Positions 36,212-47,146 of a stretch of 64,000 nt of DNA are shown in pieces. The position numbers and the translations under genes are program-made. Each line of letters opens with the position of its first letter. The first letter of the stretch is position 1. The notes beneath the pieces were generated by a model, which saw only the letters and a list, made by a program, of their open reading frames with translations, did not search any database and had not been told where the DNA came from. The stretch comes from Deltaproteobacteria bacterium (GTDB lineage Bacteria > Desulfobacterota > Dissulfuribacteria > Dissulfuribacterales > JALVPX01), in contig JALVVK010000126.1 in assembly GCA_027023445.1 (NCBI GenBank), forward strand, positions 4,740 through 68,739. Reading direction: 5' to 3'.

Positions 36212-37582
36212 TTATAATTTTCCCGGATTCAGTATACCCCTGGGATCAAACACGCCCTTTATGCCTTTCATGAGGCCAATGGCGTCCGCCCCCAGCTCCA
36301 TGGAAAGATAAGGCCTCTTTGTAATCCCTGTACCGTGTTCGCCGGAAACAGTCCCGCCAAGGGACAGGGTCTGCTCCATGATCCAGTCAACCGCCTCATG
36401 GCAGTGCCTTTTGAGCTCCGGTTGACCGAGGTCAGTTAAAAGGTTGACGTGCAGATTGCCATCCCCTGCGTGCCCAAAGGAAAGAATGGTTATGTCAAAC
36501 CTCCGGCCCGCGTCTTCCAGCCTGCGCATCATTTCCGGCAGCGCGTCTCTTGGAACACATATGTCCTCGCTGACCTTGTCCGGATAACCCAGCCTCCTGA
36601 TGGCAGGAGAGAGTGATCTGCGGGCCTTCCAGAACCGGGCGGCCTGTTCCGGGGATTCAGCAACATGAAGCCCTGACGCACCGGCTGCCTGAAACACCGA
36701 GGCCATCTCCTGCGTCTCTTCCCTGACAGCAGGCAGACTGCCGTCCACCTCCGCAAGGAGCATGGCGCGCGTCCCCCGCGGCATGGAAACAGGAAGGCTG
36801 TCCTTCACGCATTCAAGGCTTAATCTGTCCAGCAATTCCACACACCTGGGAAGCACGCCGCGGGTAAACAGGGAAACCAGGCCCTTGCAGGCTTCACTCG
36901 GACCGGGGAAAAAGGCGAGAAGGGTTCCAACCGCCTTTGGCGCGGGAACCAGCCTGAGGAGAACCCTGGTGATTACGCCAAGCGTACCCTCTGAACCTAC
37001 CATGAGACGCGCGAGATTATATCCCACCACTCCTTTTGCCGTCCTGGTGCCGGTTTCAACCACCTTTCCGCCAGGCAGTACTATCTGGAGGGACATTACG
37101 TAATCCCTGGTCACGCCATATTTTACCGCCCTTGCACCACCCGCGCCCGTGGCAACATTACCGCCAATGGTACAGAAACCGAGACTTGCCGGGTCAGGAG
37201 GATACAGAAGGCCTGATTTTTCAACATGCGCCTGAATGCTGCCCGTTATGGCGCCGGGTTCCGCTTCCACGGTAAGGTTGGCCGTGTTTACGGAGAGGAT
37301 GCGGTTCATCCTCGAAAGACACAAAACCAGGCCGGGGATCTCCGCAAGCGCGCCACCGGTGGTTCCCGTGCCCGCGCCCCTCGGATAGACGGGAATACCC
37401 GCCGAGTTGGCAAGTTTCATGACCCGGACTACCTGCTCAAGGTCAGTGGGCAGGGCAACGGCCTCCGGCATGAAGCTCAACCCTGAGGCATCGTAGGAAT
37501 AGGTTCTCAGATCACATGGATCCAGCGAAAAATTCTCCCGGCCCAGGATCTTTGTAAACTGCCTGGCCAGAGACCTCTTCAT
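36212..37582 (-). CDS. FAD-linked oxidase, GlcD/D-lactate dehydrogenase family
   Basis: The ORF is 456 aa with an FAD-binding PCMH domain (IPVYPRGAGTGTTGG). The C-terminus has a GlcD-like motif (GGTVSGEHGTGITKRPY...DPRGILNPGK). Confidence 0.9.
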   Translation of the reverse strand: MKRSLARQFTKILGRENFSLDPCDLRTYSYDASGLSFMPEAVALPTDLEQVVRVMKLANSAGIPVYPRGAGTGTTGGALAEIPGLVLCLSRMNRILSVNTANLTVEAEPGAITGSIQAHVEKSGLLYPPDPASLGFCTIGGNVATGAGGARAVKYGVTRDYVMSLQIVLPGGKVVETGTRTAKGVVGYNLARLMVGSEGTLGVITRVLLRLVPAPKAVGTLLAFFPGPSEACKGLVSLFTRGVLPRCVELLDRLSLECVKDSLPVSMPRGTRAMLLAEVDGSLPAVREETQEMASVFQAAGASGLHVAESPEQAARFWKARRSLSPAIRRLGYPDKVSEDICVPRDALPEMMRRLEDAGRRFDITILSFGHAGDGNLHVNLLTDLGQPELKRHCHEAVDWIMEQTLSLGGTVSGEHGTGITKRPYLSMELGADAIGLMKGIKGVFDPRGILNPGKL

Positions 37583-37584
37583 GC

Positions 37585-38913
37585 CTAAGACTGCCAGCGT
37601 TTTTTCTCTACCTGGTCCATGAAAAACTCAATCTGATGTCTTGATTTGCCCGGAGTGTTGAGTTCCTTCCTGATTCTTTTAATCGAGTGGGTCACCGTGG
37701 CGTGATCCCTGTTAAACTCTCTTCCTATGGCCTCAAGGGAGGAATCCGTAAACCGTCTGGCAAGATACATGGCTATCTGCCTCGGCCAGGTGATGGCCCG
37801 TTTTCTGGACTTGGAAATTATCTCCTGCTCTGTGAGCTTGAAATGCCTGCAGATCATATCCTTTATCAGGGCTACTGTTACCTCGGGCGGCTCGCCCACC
37901 AGATCAAGGACCACCTCCCTGGCCAGGTCCATATCCAGGGGACGTTTCAAAAGGGATGACTTGGCAATAAGCCCTATTACCGCCCCTTCTATCTGACGGA
38001 TATCACCAGTGAGCCTGCTGGCCAAAAATTCGACTATGCTCTCATCAAGCAATACTCCCTGGGCCTTGGCCTTTCTCCGCAATATCCTTTTTCTGGTATC
38101 AAAATCCGGTGGATTTATGGTGGTAATAAGTCCGCTGCCAAGGCGTGAACGCAGAATATCGTTCACTTTCGGTATCTCCCTCGGAAGCCTGTTTCCCGTA
38201 AGGATTACGGTTTTCCCCTGGTCCATGAGCACGTCCAGGGCAAGGGCAAGCTCCGTCTGGGTGCGGTCCCTGCCGGACACGGACTGGACTTCTTCCAGAA
38301 GAAGCGCGTCACAGGTCCTGCTGTATCTCTTTTTAAAGTCGTCTATTTCATTGTTCCTGACGGCTCTTACCACCTGGTGCGTAAATTCGTTTGCCGTAAC
38401 ATAACATAGTCTTGCCTGCGGGCGCCTGTCCAGAATAAGCCGGCCCGCAGCCTGGGTGAGATGGCTTTTCCCAAGGCCTGAACCTGCGTGAAGGTAGATC
38501 ACCTTGCTGTGATTCGGATCCCCATTTGCCGTGGAAAGACACGCTGAGTACGCGTACTGGTTACTGCTGCCCACCACAAACTCATCAAAGGTATACCGGT
38601 CACAGAACCTGGGCCTCGGCAGTTCATTAGGAGCGAACCTGGGAAGATGAAGCTGGCCTTTCGCAGCATCCCTTACCTTTTCCACCGGGCAAAGTTTTAT
38701 CTTCCAGGTCTTATCCCCCTGGACCATAAACTCTTTTATCAGAGGAAGATAATGCTCCTGCACCCAGGAGGCGAAAAACTGGTTCGGACACCTGAGCAAA
38801 ATGGTGTCCCCCTCCACGCCTGAATATGTCAGGGGACAGATCCAGACCTTGTAGGTACTCTCCGCAAGCTTGGAACGCAGCCTTTCCTTCAGTGAATTCC
38901 ACAAGTTTTCCAT
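37585..38913 (-). CDS. dnaA: Chromosomal replication initiator protein DnaA
   Basis: I set the start at the ATG at 38913 (MENLWNSLKERL). It has the AAA+ Walker A GSGLGKSHL and the box VII / sensor region. The C-terminal DNA-binding domain is present (RPRQIAMYLARRFTDSSLEAIGREFNRDHATVTHSIKRI). Confidence 0.95.
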   Translation of the reverse strand: MENLWNSLKERLRSKLAESTYKVWICPLTYSGVEGDTILLRCPNQFFASWVQEHYLPLIKEFMVQGDKTWKIKLCPVEKVRDAAKGQLHLPRFAPNELPRPRFCDRYTFDEFVVGSSNQYAYSACLSTANGDPNHSKVIYLHAGSGLGKSHLTQAAGRLILDRRPQARLCYVTANEFTHQVVRAVRNNEIDDFKKRYSRTCDALLLEEVQSVSGRDRTQTELALALDVLMDQGKTVILTGNRLPREIPKVNDILRSRLGSGLITTINPPDFDTRKRILRRKAKAQGVLLDESIVEFLASRLTGDIRQIEGAVIGLIAKSSLLKRPLDMDLAREVVLDLVGEPPEVTVALIKDMICRHFKLTEQEIISKSRKRAITWPRQIAMYLARRFTDSSLEAIGREFNRDHATVTHSIKRIRKELNTPGKSRHQIEFFMDQVEKKRWQS

Positions 38914-39373
38914 AACTCCCCGAACTCCCAACCGCAGAAAAACGTACCGTATTCTTTTGAATACTACTGATTACTATGCACTGAAATCGTTTGCGCAATA
39001 CATACTGAAGGGCCATTCATATGTCAAAGCGAAAGAATTGGAATTCTCCGATTTTGGAGCTTGAGTTTTAAACAGGGGCATATCTACTCAACATCTAATC
39101 ATTTTCTGACTTAAAACCTATAACCCCGCTTAAAAACAGGCTTTTTAAGAACAAAAAAAATATCTGTAAAATCAAATAATTATTAACAATCAACAAAGTT
39201 TTCAACAATTATCCACAATAAAATCACCTTGCAAAATCTACAAAATTCTCCTTTTTTTGCCTTTTAACTCACCTTTCGTCTCTTTGACAGTAAGGACATG
39301 GGTTATGAACTTTGGGGATTAAACGAAACACAGGACACTTGTAAACCATGCGGGGTTTTGGCATAGTTTTCCC
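38914..39373. other. Candidate oriC / dnaA promoter region (AT-rich)
   Basis: This 460-bp gap upstream of dnaA has long A/T runs (39120-39260). It holds one perfect DnaA box and a few sites with two mismatches (for example ttattaaca at 39180 and ttttcaaca at about 39199). Confidence 0.45.
39209..39217 (+). promoter_or_regulatory. Perfect consensus DnaA box TTATCCACA
   Basis: I read it directly at 39209-39217, about 300 bp upstream of the dnaA start codon. Confidence 0.6.
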
Positions 39374-43139: not shown

Positions 43140-44030
43140 ATGGACAACAAAACATCTGGTACGACCAAAGGCAGTCAAAAACCTAAGAGACCATACCTGA
43201 CCAAAAAAAACGGAAAATATGAACTGAAGGTACGCGTAAGCACCGGAAACCTCACCGCGCAACAACTCCTGGCGCTTAAAGACATATCAGGAACTTACGG
43301 CTCAGGCCAGATCCACCTGACCGCGAGACAGGAGGTCCTGATCTATGACATTGAGGAGGCACACGTCGAGGAGGCCATAAGTCGTCTCGAAGCGGCAGGG
43401 CTGAAGGGCGGCTCCGCCGGGATGAGGGTCAGAAACATCATGAGCTGCGTTGGTGACAGGTGTAAAAACTGCGCCTGGGATCCGGCTGCCCTTGCCAGGG
43501 AACTTGATGAAAAATACGGGGAAATGGACCTTCCGGGAGCGGTTAAAATGGCCGTTGCCGGTTGCCCGTTCCCGTGCATACGCCCCCAGTTGAACGATAT
43601 CGGCATTATCGGAAGGATTCTGCCACGGTTGGTTGACGAAGAAAAATGCAAGGGATGCGGCATGTGTGAAAAGGTCTGTAAAGTAGGCGCGGCATCTGTT
43701 GGGGAAGGCAAAAAATCCGTCACGGATTACAACCTTTGCGCCATGTGCGGCAGATGCGTGCTGTATTGCCCATCATCGGTCAGGATCGCGGAAAAAACAG
43801 GGGTAAGTATTACGGTAGGAGGAGGTGGCTCCTGGCCTGTAACGGAAGGCCCCATCCTTGTAACCATGATCGGGCTGGACCAGGTTATTCCCCTTGTGGG
43901 GAAAATCCTTAATTATTACAAGGAAAACGCCCTTTCTGCTGAAAAAAGACTCCGGCCATTTGTCAAAAGAATAGGCATAGAAAAATTAAAAAAGGATCTG
44001 CTGAAAGGCGTGGAAGTCATCATCCCGTAA
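43140..44030 (+). CDS. Small Dsr-like / nitrite-sulfite reductase family protein with an inserted 2x[4Fe-4S] ferredoxin domain
   Basis: The ORF is 296 aa. It has a NiR/SiR ferredoxin-like half domain (LTAQQLLALKDISGTYGSGQIHLTARQ). It has a siroheme-cluster-type Cys set (SCVGDRCKNC ... GCPFPC). It also has the ferredoxin motifs CKGCGMCEKVC and CAMCGRCVLYCP. Confidence 0.8.
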   Translation: MDNKTSGTTKGSQKPKRPYLTKKNGKYELKVRVSTGNLTAQQLLALKDISGTYGSGQIHLTARQEVLIYDIEEAHVEEAISRLEAAGLKGGSAGMRVRNIMSCVGDRCKNCAWDPAALARELDEKYGEMDLPGAVKMAVAGCPFPCIRPQLNDIGIIGRILPRLVDEEKCKGCGMCEKVCKVGAASVGEGKKSVTDYNLCAMCGRCVLYCPSSVRIAEKTGVSITVGGGGSWPVTEGPILVTMIGLDQVIPLVGKILNYYKENALSAEKRLRPFVKRIGIEKLKKDLLKGVEVIIP

Positions 44031-44092
44031 AGGTTGTCCCCCCCGGATCTTCTTTTCACCTTGGAAAAGAGGCGCCTCCGGGGGCACTCTCC

Positions 44093-45757
44093 TCACCCGG
44101 GATCGTTTTCCGAAGGGTCTTTCTCAAGCCAATCCCCGTAAAGTCTCTTCCTGCATTCAGGACATATGCTATGGCTGAAGACGACATCAGAGTGTGAGCT
44201 GATATACTCCTCAAGCTGATTCCAGTAGCCCTTGTCATCTCGAATCTTCTTACATGATGCGCAGATAGGAAGCATTCCACTCAGGACCTTCACGTCTGAA
44301 AGCGCCTCCTGTAACTCGCGGATCAATTGCTCTCTCTCCTTTTCCGCCATCTTCCGCCCTGTTATGTCCCGGCAGATTCCAACAACCATTTCAGGTTTCT
44401 GCTCAGAATCTCTTGCCGCCACGCTTGCCGTACACCATAATATCAATTCGTCGCCATTTGGCATTCTGAACTGCGTTTCGGACTCGTGCACACCATCGTC
44501 TCTCAGACACCTTGAAGCCATACAGAGCCTACAGGGTTCATTCATGCCATGAAAGGCCTCGTAACACTTTCTGCCCACGAGTTCCTGCCCAAACAGTTCC
44601 CGAGCAACATCATTTGCCCAGGAAATGACATAATTCCTGTCCACCATGAACATGGAATCCGTAATAGATGAAATAATCCCTGAAAGTTTTGCCTCGTTTT
44701 CCCTCAACCTTTCCGCTGAACGGGCCAGTTGCCTGAAATATTTTGCCTCCGCCCTTAATTCGGCCTTTTTCTTGTTACTTCTCAGGAAAAGAAGGCCTCC
44801 GGCCAGGAAAAATAACAATACCACGCCAGAGAGCATCCATGTGTAACGTGCATGTTCCATTATGGGACCCGCCACCTCAGAGTATCCCCGGCAGATACCT
44901 GCTGACCACCGCCTGTTCCCAACGCGCACCGGGGCATAGGCAACAATCCTTTTCCTGCCGTCCTCACCTGGAAGAACCGCCCATCCCTCCCTGCCGGACG
45001 CAATGTCCGCGAGAACCGCCTTCATGGCGGTAAGGCTGCCCCCGCCCTGCCCACTCGGATCAGAAGGGAAAAAAGGCCTGCCGATTCTCTGCCTATCTTT
45101 ATGGCTCAACACAACAGCCTTTGAATCAACAAGCCATGCGCAGGTTTGTCCATCTGGCTCCATTTCCATTAAAAATCTTCGGTAGATGGTATCCATCTGA
45201 ACCATAAAACGTACCAACCCCGCGAACTTTCCCCTGTAAAAAACAGGCCTTGAAAAGGATATCGCGTAATTGCCACGGTCATTAACGAACAGGCCGGACA
45301 CATAGGGCTTATGTGTACGGATAACAACGGATACTCCTGGTTTGTCTGAATGATCTTTGCCAATCTCATCCGGAATAAAAGGATGACGATGCAGCATTAC
45401 TCCGGTGGCATCCAGCAGGGTGACAGCATCGGTATCATGACAAAGAAGTCTAAAAACAGACCTTATCAGGCAATAGGATTTTTTATCCCGCACCTGTCTT
45501 TTCCTGATAAAAATATCATGCTGCACATCCGGATTATCCGACAGGATCTTCAGATAACGCTGGCGATCCTCTATATATTCCTGTATTCTTTTTGCCGTTG
45601 CCCTGGCCGCCGCGAGGAGCTGGTACTGGCTGTTGTAAACAGCGGCCCTTTCATAGGTCTTCTGATTGATATAAGCCAAGTTTAAAGTCAGCGCCACCAT
45701 GGCAACACTGCCAATAACCGCCAGCAAAAATTTCCAGCTCAACTTTTTAAAACACAT
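44093..45757 (-). CDS. Membrane sensor with an extracytoplasmic Cache-like domain, a PAS domain and a C-terminal CxxC...CxxC module
   Basis: I set the start at the ATG at 45757 (MCFKKLSWKFLLAVIG, TM1). A second TM segment is WMLSGVVLLFFLAGGLLFL. It has a PAS block and a coiled coil, and then ends LPICASCKKIRDDKGYWNQLEEYISSHSDVVFSHSICPECRKRLYG. It has no HisKA, HATPase, GGDEF, EAL or HD-GYP motifs. Confidence 0.85.
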   Translation of the reverse strand: MCFKKLSWKFLLAVIGSVAMVALTLNLAYINQKTYERAAVYNSQYQLLAAARATAKRIQEYIEDRQRYLKILSDNPDVQHDIFIRKRQVRDKKSYCLIRSVFRLLCHDTDAVTLLDATGVMLHRHPFIPDEIGKDHSDKPGVSVVIRTHKPYVSGLFVNDRGNYAISFSRPVFYRGKFAGLVRFMVQMDTIYRRFLMEMEPDGQTCAWLVDSKAVVLSHKDRQRIGRPFFPSDPSGQGGGSLTAMKAVLADIASGREGWAVLPGEDGRKRIVAYAPVRVGNRRWSAGICRGYSEVAGPIMEHARYTWMLSGVVLLFFLAGGLLFLRSNKKKAELRAEAKYFRQLARSAERLRENEAKLSGIISSITDSMFMVDRNYVISWANDVARELFGQELVGRKCYEAFHGMNEPCRLCMASRCLRDDGVHESETQFRMPNGDELILWCTASVAARDSEQKPEMVVGICRDITGRKMAEKEREQLIRELQEALSDVKVLSGMLPICASCKKIRDDKGYWNQLEEYISSHSDVVFSHSICPECRKRLYGDWLEKDPSENDPG

Positions 45758-45899
45758 GACATGACATGAAAGACCTGGATGGGGAATATGCGTGGTTGCG
45801 CTAAGGTATAATCCGTGGATTGGCTGAAAGTCAATGCCCTGGGCCACGACCCATGGCCTCTGTTAGCCATGAGCCATGACCTGCCTGTTTTTTCTTATT

Positions 45900-47048
45900 T
45901 CAATTAACCCTGAATCCCTTCAGCAGCTCCTGGAGCCTGACTGAAAGATCGGCCAGCACACCGGACGCCTCCAGATATTTGTGCGCGATGGCAACGGTTT
46001 CCTGAACAACCATCTTCGTGCCATCAGCCTTATTTTTCACATCCTCGACCTTGGTAGCCGCGTCAGACACGTTGGAGCTGATCTCCGACACTGTTGCGGT
46101 CTGTTCCTCAGCCGCGCTGGCTATGGTATTGGCCAGGTCGTTCACCTGGGCCACAATGGTTGTGATCTCCTCCACCGAGCTTACCGCCTCTCTGGTATCG
46201 GCCTGGATGGTCTGAATCATGGTGGTGATTTCCTGGGTGGCATCGGCAGTCTGCCTTGCAAGCTCCTTAACCTCATTTGCCACTACGGCGAACCCCTTCC
46301 CCGCCTCCCCTGCCCTGGCGGCCTCTATGGTCGCGTTAAGGGCAAGAAGGTTCGTCTGTTCAGCAATAGTGTTTATCACCTGGATGATATCGCCAATCTT
46401 GTCTGAACTTTCTCCAAGCCTGTTTATGACCTCATTCGTGTTCTGGGCCTTATCCTGGGCCTCGTTGGTAATCCTGGCGGTCTCGGCCACACTCTGGGCA
46501 ATCTCGTTTGCGGCCGTATCCAGATCCTGCGTGGCATTGGATACAAGCTGAATGTTTTCATTCACCACGTCAGCAGACTCAACCACCGCGTCCACTGTCA
46601 TCTCCATATTGCCTGCCTGTTCGGAAACTTCCTGCCCTGCGGCATGGACCGTGCCTGCCGCGCGTGTCACCTCCTCAGTATCGTGACTGACGTCCCGGAT
46701 CATACGGGCCAGCCTGTCCCCCATCTGGTTTACCGCCTCCACCAGCTGTCCTAACTCTCCAGACGCCTTGACCCGGATACGTGCGGAAAGGTCCCCGTCA
46801 GCCATCTGCCGGGCCGTGGCAATACATTCTTTAAAAGGATAGATAAGGCCAGAGCGCAGGGCCCACCATCCATAAACAAAAAGACAGGCAGAGACAGCCA
46901 GTATTATACCGCCCACCGCATGAAAAGTGGAAGCGCCTGCCCCATCCGCTTTCCAGTAGACAAAAATTCCGGTTAAAAAATTTAAAACAAACAAACCAGC
47001 CATCGGCAACCCCAGGCTTACCTTTACCCCACTGAAATCTGATGCCAT
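45900..47048 (-). CDS. Methyl-accepting chemotaxis protein
   Basis: The ATG at 47048 follows AGGAGG. It has two TM segments with almost no periplasmic domain, then a HAMP domain. The highly conserved MCP signalling hairpin is present ([35 protein letters not shown]). Confidence 0.92.
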
Positions 47049-47146
47049 CTTATTCCTCCTTGCAGGCACTTGTCCCTTGAGTTGGTTTTCAGTGGACTTA
47101 TCGGCAGCAGGCTGCACTCGCTTAACCGAAAATGTGACAAGGACAG

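Follow-up and report, generated by a model that had tools for sequence, protein, structure and literature searches.

What does a bacterial sensor do when its chain ends in a small cysteine-rich tail, placed where a transmitter should be? The question is raised by a gene (44093..45847, minus strand) in a stretch of 64,000 nucleotides from Deltaproteobacteria bacterium (assembly GCA_027023445.1, contig JALVVK010000126.1, positions 4,740 to 68,739); this whole stretch is called the window below. The gene codes for a membrane protein with a periplasmic sensing domain and a cytoplasmic PAS domain, and in kind it is one of the familiar modular sensors and response regulators of bacteria. We find that the tail is an abundant module for which the available libraries and literature give no description, that it is conserved far beyond chance, that it stands C-terminally behind input or receiver modules at the end of a linker of fixed length, and that it resembles the dimerisation domain of the Fur-type regulators. 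Our tentative reading is that the module would be the shared output end of many different sensors.

The domain order of the sensor that the initial annotation had proposed from the letters, i.e. a Cache-like domain, a transmembrane (TM) segment, a PAS domain, a coiled coil and a CxxC tail, is confirmed by Pfam and by the translation. All features of the gene lie on the minus strand. The first TM segment (residues 38-60, WKFLLAVIGSVAMVALTLNLAYI; 45668..45736) was placed from a hydrophobic stretch in the translation and not by a TM predictor. It is followed by a periplasmic dCache_1 sensor domain (residues 74-315; 44903..45628; Pfam PF02743, E 6.2e-17, 62.4 bits against a cutoff of 45), by a second TM segment (residues 335-355, YTWMLSGVVLLFFLAGGLLFL; 44783..44845), also inferred from the translation, and by a cytoplasmic PAS domain (residues 388-500; 44348..44686) that is matched by PAS_9 (E 1.6e-10), PAS_4 (E 2.9e-8) and TIGR00229 (E 1.7e-13) and carries a DIT motif (residues 494-496) at its end. 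A signalling-helix or coiled-coil linker, DITGRKMAEKEREQLIRELQEALSDVKVLSG (residues 494-524; 44276..44368), is conserved as part of the C-terminal module, whose core is MLPICASCKKIRDDKGYWNQLEEYISSHSDVVFSHSICPECRKRLYG (residues 525-571; 44135..44275). The peptide quoted in the initial annotation, LPICASCKKIRDDKGYWNQLEEYISSHSDVVFSHSICPECRKRLYG, matches residues 526-571 of the translation exactly, and the interval 44093-44310 that it concerned corresponds to residues 513-584 plus the stop codon.

Three conserved elements can be recognised within the core. The first CxxC, C529-A-S-C532 (44252..44263), is invariant in all alignments. It is followed by a polar and aromatic patch, K533 K534 I R536 D537 D538 x G540 Y541 W542 (44222..44251), and the third element, H559-S-I-C562-P-E-C565 (44153..44173), combines an invariant histidine with the second CxxC (C562/C565, 44153-44164). 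The chain ends in a charged, variable extension, DWLEKDPSENDPG (44096..44134), that differs in length and sequence among homologues. Models for HisKA/HATPase, GGDEF, EAL, HD and HTH domains in Pfam and NCBIfam found no match in the sensor even at E<=1, so the absence of kinase, cyclase, phosphodiesterase and HTH motifs noticed at first reading holds; NCBIfam kinase models reach only the PAS region, far under their cutoffs.

Two further observations concern the sensor itself. Its start is ambiguous: read from the GTG at 45847 to the stop codon at 44093-44095 the protein has 584 amino acids, while an alternative ATG at 45757, just ahead of the first TM segment, gives 554, and a clear Shine-Dalgarno sequence was not seen ahead of either codon. 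A public collection contains the exact protein; its cluster has 8 members, each either 584 or 554 amino acids long, i.e. the first 30 residues differ in length across the cluster. The gene is also called at 584 amino acids on a Logan contig. The PAS domain holds a cysteine cluster of its own, C428-x10-C439-x2-C442-x4-C447 (CYEAFHGMNEPCRLCMASRC, residues 428-447; 44507-44566), that could be a metal or iron-sulfur (Fe-S) site in the sensor domain.

The tail is well conserved outside this protein. A query of 83 amino acids, comprising linker and tail, returned 1,467 protein matches with a best E of about 1e-30 and 60-77% identity. A profile of the tail, run against 1.84 billion cluster representatives, retrieved 24,324 clusters (50% identity) at E<=1e-3, 20,122 at E<=1e-10 and 7,011 at E<=1e-30. 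Scanning one genome per species gave at least 600 stretches, from which 80 loci were kept for analysis. The initial annotation had mentioned such tails in Deltaproteobacteria and spirochaetes; both are found here, and the range widens to at least 15 phyla. Most of the 80 loci are from Desulfobacterota, and the others include Nitrospirota, Acidobacteriota, Bacteroidota, Ignavibacteriae, Calditrichota, Spirochaetota, Myxococcota and Chloroflexota as well as Verrucomicrobiota (Victivallales, Chthoniobacteraceae), Elusimicrobiota, Hydrogenedentota, Latescibacterota, Sumerlaeota, a Clostridia metagenome-assembled genome (MAG) and Chromatiaceae.

The conservation within the tail is high, with about 65-75% identity among homologues. 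The spacing of the cysteines is C-x2-C-x29-C-x2-C in 457 of 460 tails. In 358 unique domain windows the four cysteines, the histidine of the 'SHG' motif, a tryptophan and a glycine are invariant or nearly so, and the residues P, K, K, I, R, D, D, Y, E, Y and F are conserved at 89-100%, as is each position of the patch described above. The consensus reads L-x-G-L-L-P-I-C-A-S-C-K-K-I-R-D-D-K-G-Y-W-N-Q-I-E-x-Y-I-x-x-H-S-E-A-E-F-S-H-G-I-C-P-E-C-x-K-K-L-Y-P.

The position of the tail was investigated in 187 full-length homologues, i.e. 72 proteins from the genome loci and 115 cluster representatives, with the 25 most frequent Pfam families listed for each set. The families listed ahead of the tail are input or receiver modules only. 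PAS domains precede it in about half to three quarters of the members and REC domains in 14 of the 72 and 10 of the 115; the other modules are GAF, HAMP, MASE1/3/6, dCache_1, SBP_bac_3, HisKA_7TM, Tll0287-like, Diguanyl_cycl_sensor, PocR, MEDS, TPR and Reg_prop/Y_Y_Y. HATPase, GGDEF, EAL, HD and HTH are not among the families listed for either set, and the ten largest homologues, scanned one by one, have no other output domain. The suggestion that the tail occupies the place of the transmitter is thus borne out by these architectures.

The tail is always C-terminal, with the first cysteine mostly 45-60 residues from the protein end. Apparent exceptions are natural fusions of two complete units (REC-tail-REC-tail, or a membrane sensor with tail that is repeated). 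Head-to-tail fusions occur among P0121-P0127, and in P0140 a REC-tail protein is followed by a second, degenerate tail. Tail genes also occur in tandem: three lie within 12 kb in an Ignavibacteriae MAG (L073; 2250-4445, 4603-6234 and 9528-9689) and two in a Deltaproteobacteria MAG (L007; 1211-2233 and 3471-3668).

The linker is of nearly constant length. From the DIT motif to the first cysteine we counted exactly 35 residues, i.e. five heptads, in 184 of the 193 tails with such a motif and 42 in two, a statistic that is biased upward by the inclusion of the linker in the homologue queries. The hydrophobic positions of the linker, -20, -16, -13, -9, -6 and -2 from the first cysteine, follow a 4-3-4-3-4 heptad (a/d) pattern. 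Heptad patterns of this kind are the hallmark of the parallel coiled-coil 'signalling helix' that precedes histidine-kinase and GGDEF domains, and we infer that the linker transmits signals as a coiled coil.

The tail shares more than this with HisKA/DHp and GGDEF outputs: it stands in the same place after PAS, HAMP, GAF and REC, has a heptad linker of discrete length and follows the same upstream sensors, including HisKA_7TM, Diguanyl_cycl_sensor and MASE. It differs from them in being only ~45 residues long, in lacking an ATP- or GTP-binding fold or a phospho-acceptor context, and in having no Pfam match. A likeness of logic alone links it to the tip of the methyl-accepting chemotaxis proteins (MCPs) that works with CheA/CheW and to the RsbR-type STAS domains of the stressosome, where varied sensors also carry a near-invariant C-terminal module in many paralogues per genome. 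Neither has any sequence or fold relation to the tail, and the tail genes are without linked partner genes.

Is the module already known under some other name? Pfam (models to 2025), NCBIfam (2026) and PADLOC were run on the protein, the tail, 63 tails (at E<=1), the 187 homologues and 9 divergent relatives. In these curated libraries and in the PDB there is no family that covers the tail, i.e. the last 60 residues. The recurrent matches, all sub-threshold (DUF3039 in 57 of the 63 tails, zf-C4pol, Zn_ribbon_HMPTM and Fin), span one knuckle only, 10-40 residues. Literature searches with motif strings and keywords found no publication that contains the motif strings or describes the tail, and no source names any tail protein after its tail. 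The initial statement that no function is assigned to such tails therefore stands.

A number of known modules were considered and rejected. A histidine kinase transmitter finds no HisKA or HATPase_c match; for an HNH nuclease the order of the motifs is wrong and a Pfam match is lacking; a deaminase-type PCxxC does not agree with the small size and the four cysteines of the tail. The motif is unfit for an RxxD-type site for cyclic di-GMP (c-di-GMP), weak matches to the Rad50 zinc hook are owed to the coiled coil, and a thioredoxin-like redox CxxC and a ZAS anti-sigma motif were considered from the sequence and dropped. Zinc-ribbon models of Pfam gave E 0.004-0.5, all under the thresholds. The zinc-ribbon-like character proposed by the initial annotation survives in part: both structure models described below start a helix at the second CxxC, which makes a classical zinc ribbon improbable, and the tail does appear to be a Cys4 module, with the Zn(Cys)4 domain of the Fur family as the nearest one.

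Two models of the tail were made with AlphaFold2 (AF2). Model 1, which includes the linker, has a predicted local distance difference test score (pLDDT) of 86.7; here the linker is helical (tail residues 2-16), 'LSGMLPI' forms a strand, the middle of the tail consists of two helices (residues 28-50 helical) and the second CxxC opens the last helix. Model 2 (54 residues, more diverse alignment; pLDDT 81.3) runs in the order strand (LPIC), knuckle, strand, short strand, helix, strand (FSHS), with CPEC at the start of a helix. Foldseek found no match for model 1 with its linker helix. For model 2 the nine best matches are all from the Fur family (PerR 2fe3, 2rgv, 3f8n; Zur 4mtd; Fur 6d57, 9ire, 4ets), and they are weak, with a best E of 0.24, a probability of 0.51 and a template-modelling (TM) score of 0.45. 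A PerR chain is also in the weak list of a PDB sequence-profile search with the tail, in which nothing fell below E 0.1.

Profile-profile comparison gave a clearer signal. With hhalign, the tail matched four Fur-family dimerisation domains (PDB sequences) at a probability of 93% and E 3e-7, and a profile of 58 such sequences at 96%, E 4e-9 and a score of 42. One hundred column shuffles in which the cysteines were kept fixed scored 12.3 +/- 3.3 with a maximum of 24.9, i.e. the real score is about 9 standard deviations higher, and the likeness to the Fur domain therefore rests on more than the cysteines. Seven unrelated Cys4 modules that were also tried as identities (DksA/TraR C4 zinc finger, ClpX zinc-binding domain, NrdR, Ada N-terminal domain, HypA, rubredoxin and ribosomal L31) scored 12-14 with a probability of 3% or less; this control is indicative only.

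In the alignment, P-I-C-x-x-C-K-K-I-R-D of the tail is paired with A-I-C96-x-x-C99-G-K-I-V-D104 of PerR, followed by the helices, and H-G-I-C-P-E-C-x-K-K is paired with Y-G-V-C136-Q-E-C139-x-K-K. The strand ahead of the second CxxC has a deletion of 6-7 residues relative to PerR. D537 of the tail pairs with D104 of PerR, a ligand of the regulatory metal site on the side that faces the other domain. This pairing suggests that the conserved hairpin face of the tail is its business side.

The dimerisation domain of the Fur family has the fold B3-B4-helix-B5-H6, and its structural site is built from the four cysteines of two CxxC pairs, one located in the loop that joins B3 and B4 and the other at H6. 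The zinc of this site gives order to nearly all of the domain and withstands EDTA, and contacts of Fur with DNA are made elsewhere than in this domain (PMC8216289). In model 2 a beta-hairpin holds the first CxxC and a helix starts at the second, which resembles the structural Zn(Cys)4 of Zur as the same paper describes it (PMC8216289). By this model, a helix and a strand lie between the two pairs of the tail, as they do in the Fur, PerR and Zur domains; a second pair that opens the last helix is common to these domains and to both models of the tail. We consider it likely that the tail is a Fur-domain-like, dimeric module with a structural Zn(Cys)4, and it is probably a distant relative of the Fur/PerR/Zur dimerisation domain; zinc binding and dimerisation are predictions from sequence. 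The metal would most likely be zinc with a structural role, and not a sensor of redox state or metals. The initial idea of an uncharacterised signalling output, possibly dependent on metal or redox state, is thus upheld as regards the transmitter's place and the lack of characterisation, and less so as regards redox or metal sensing.

The link between the tail and the Fur dimerisation domain is new in this analysis. We note that the tail is not a member of the Fur family, because it has no winged-helix DNA-binding domain, hinge or His-rich regulatory site: the N-terminal part of the sensor consists of dCache_1, TM segments and PAS, and a winged helix or HTH is likewise absent from the families listed for the 187 homologues. 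The distance between the CxxC pairs is 29 residues in the tail and about 36 in Fur, owing to the shortened strand. The invariants KK-x-RDD-x-GYW, E, Y and HS of the tail are absent from Fur, whereas Fur has HHH or HYH before the first CxxC where the tail has (S)G-L-L-P-I with no histidine conserved at 90% or more. Finally, the tail is joined to sensor modules via a coiled coil and the Fur domain to a DNA-binding domain. A match to an already characterised domain is approached only weakly; the likeness is remote, and it bears on the construction of the tail rather than on its signalling target.

In concept, HalOD2 comes closest among published domains. This uncharacterised response-regulator output of a few halobacteria, a predicted Zn finger, ends REC proteins with a helical segment followed by two conserved CxxC that have 20-25 residues between them (Galperin et al. 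2018; PMC5847659). Compared by description only, the tail differs in being bacterial, in having 29 residues between the motifs and in standing behind many types of input.

Where might the partner of such a module be encoded? All-against-all clustering of 827 ORFs (open reading frames) from the 80 loci showed that only other sensor proteins recur, with an ABC ATPase in 8 loci, and no neighbour family is conserved across the 80. This fits an unlinked common partner. The gene upstream of the sensor codes for an MCP, from which the initial annotation had taken a hint of a link to chemotaxis; we do not see such a link, since an MCP lies within 6 kb of the tail gene in 2 of the 80 related loci only. 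Nothing in the sensor itself marks it as a component of the chemotaxis pathway: it has no MCPsignal domain, and conserved che or MCP linkage is absent from the 80 loci.

The tail is near-identical among its carriers and has neither a second output domain beside it nor a linked partner gene; an output end that faces a common target is therefore the simplest reading. In this reading, the two CxxC pairs would hold one structural zinc that orders the beta-hairpin, the helix, the strand and the final helix, and the module would cap a parallel coiled coil of fixed length, five heptads past the 'DIT' of the PAS domain. Binding of a ligand at the periplasmic Cache or the cytoplasmic PAS domain would then change the register or rotation of the helices, as the fixed five-heptad coiled coil implies, and this change may shift the packing of the two zinc modules against each other. 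The new arrangement would expose or hide the invariant KKxRDDxGYW surface (plus E546, H552 and H559), through which all paralogues may engage one common cellular partner, encoded away from the sensor. The extreme conservation leaves little room for target specificity among the paralogues. As a whole, this reading, i.e. a zinc-clamped dimeric end module that is driven by a coiled coil and presents an invariant surface to one unlinked common partner, is put forward tentatively and is somewhat more apt to be wrong in a part than right in all. In its widest form, which is doubtful, the tail would define a large class of bacterial signalling output that has had no name so far: tens of thousands of proteins, sensors as well as response regulators, from 15 or more phyla would converge via the near-invariant zinc-clamped dimer on a single unlinked hub.

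Several points weigh against the proposal. A domain that merely dimerises is not in itself an output, and the common partner is a hypothetical one. The two AF2 models conflict in the middle of the tail, which is helical in one and made of strands and a short helix in the other. Pfam FUR matches neither the sensor nor the tail at E<=1, nor is it among the 25 most frequent families for the 63 tails. The likeness is also uneven across the Fur family, a Desulfobacteraceae Fur-like protein reaching an hhalign score of 17.5 only. The weakness of the Foldseek matches and the upward bias of the linker count belong on the same side.

Among the alternatives, the one that survives best takes the tail for a nucleic-acid-binding output, i.e. 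a dimeric zinc module with DNA or RNA as its target, and the proteins for a new class of one-component and response regulators with a logic like that of ANTAR or LytTR. Most bacterial output domains bind DNA, and both zinc knuckles of the tail have invariant basic residues beside them (CKKIR and C-x-KK-L-Y). For HalOD2, moreover, binding of DNA or RNA has been predicted for small C-terminal Cys4 modules after REC in archaea (PMC5847659). Such a function sits poorly with a module that is near-identical among paralogues and phyla and has no obvious specificity-determining positions, and with the fact that many members, this sensor included, are integral membrane proteins. The 250 bp upstream and downstream of 68-69 homologous genes share no k-mer or palindrome, A-rich words only, and in Fur, where the closest relative of the tail is found, the dimerisation domain makes no contact with DNA (PMC8216289). 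We regard a nucleic-acid-binding role as unlikely.

The tail might instead be a further input, with the Zn(Cys)4, or a second site formed by H552, H559, E546 and D537, acting as a thiol or metal switch that reports oxidants or metal availability; this seems improbable on the whole. Hsp33, RsrA and the regulatory sites of Fur proteins act as switches of this type; the tail has the four invariant cysteines, the invariant histidine and conserved His, Glu and Asp residues to match, D537 pairs with the position of a regulatory-metal ligand in PerR, and anaerobes abound in the phyla where the tail occurs. As a switch, however, the tail would leave its proteins, the REC-tail response regulators included, without any output. 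Moreover, where Fur proteins have a His cluster ahead of the first CxxC the tail has G-L-L-P, and not even EDTA affects the structural Zn(Cys)4 of Fur proteins (PMC8216289).

The tail could also be a mere structural cap that keeps the coiled coil dimeric, with signalling via PAS or REC or with the proteins acting as decoys or scaffolds. A cap would not require 15 or so invariant polar or aromatic surface-type residues at 65-75% identity in at least 15 phyla, nor a fixed 35-residue register to the PAS domain, and small stand-alone versions of the module occur without any sensor. Dimerisation is the job of the domain in its closest relative (PMC8216289), and no partner or conserved neighbour was found in 80 to about 98 loci, both of which would suit a cap; on balance it too is quite unlikely. 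The weakest alternative, itself one concrete form of the hub reading, has the tail heterodimerise with a resident Fur- or PerR-type repressor and titrate or poison it by subunit exchange, as an 'Id-protein-like' output; it is very improbable. In its favour, the profile likeness is confined to the dimerisation domains of the Fur family and strongest with PerR, and near-universal Fur-family regulators would suit an unlinked hub. Against it, a Fur-family gene lies near 1 of about 98 loci and none lies in the window, Fur dimerisation domains vary much more from one to another than the tail does, their dimer interface is formed by a strand that in the tail is 6-7 residues shorter, and the Fur-like protein of Desulfobacteraceae matches poorly.

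The proposed zinc-clamped output end has wider relatives. IMG/VR contigs contain a few canonical tails and, in addition, divergent small stand-alone proteins of 60-150 amino acids (L090-L098), which retain only C-x2-C-[KR]-x-[IV]...G-x-W...[ST]-H-[GS]-I-C-P-[ED]-C. A profile of these divergent relatives gathers 3,687 proteins, none with a name or a Pfam family, and across the wider set that includes them the four cysteines and the histidine are the sole invariant positions. The L090-L098 contigs are putatively classified as viral; some are 159-467 kb long.

Short 'tail-only' ORFs were also inspected, and these look like split or truncated sensor genes rather than genuine single-domain proteins. 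In L086 (5426-6303) a PAS ORF overlaps the tail ORF by 4 nucleotides, and in L083 and L084 a tail ORF of 97 amino acids follows an inserted ATPase gene (AAA_14/DUF4143). The sole match in the plasmid collection is an unannotated tail fragment (L099; 5001-5138) on Dongshaea marina plasmid NZ_CP028898.1, apparently a disrupted GAF-tail sensor whose GAF-domain gene is separated by an IS21 insertion.

The surroundings of the sensor gene in the window agree with the initial description, i.e. an MCP gene precedes it and nothing follows on the same strand. The upstream neighbour (45900..47117, minus strand) is a chemoreceptor gene in which Pfam, run on the called gene, finds HAMP and MCPsignal. Downstream lies a convergent NIR_SIR/4Fe-4S gene (43140-44030, plus strand) with a 62-bp spacer to the sensor gene, and the sensor gene ends its transcription unit. 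In this spacer, directly past the stop codon, a terminator-like hairpin with the inverted repeat CCCCCGGA / TCCGGGGG (44072..44087, minus strand) was picked up by a consensus scan; it is weak, the count of such hairpins being not above shuffle expectation. A complete dnaA gene (DnaA_N, Bac_DnaA, Bac_DnaA_C; 37585-38931, minus strand) lies 5 kb from the sensor and is followed on the same strand by an FAD-linked oxidase gene (36212-37582), not by dnaN. The window may hold a replication origin region.

Censuses of signal transduction sort proteins by output domain, and proteins with the tail are labelled only 'PAS domain protein', 'response regulator' or 'hypothetical', which leaves their outputs invisible. 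The tail takes the place of kinases and cyclases behind the same sensor modules, and it is common in environmentally important anaerobes, i.e. sulfate reducers, syntrophs, Nitrospirota and Acidobacteriota. The model, the likely fold as a Fur-type Zn(Cys)4 dimer, the register of the linker and the candidate surface make this 'sensor without output' experimentally approachable. If a common partner exists, the tail proteins would represent a new branch of bacterial signalling. If that partner were a single hub, the logic of the pathway would be comparable to that of the chemoreceptor arrays or the c-di-GMP network, in a different currency.

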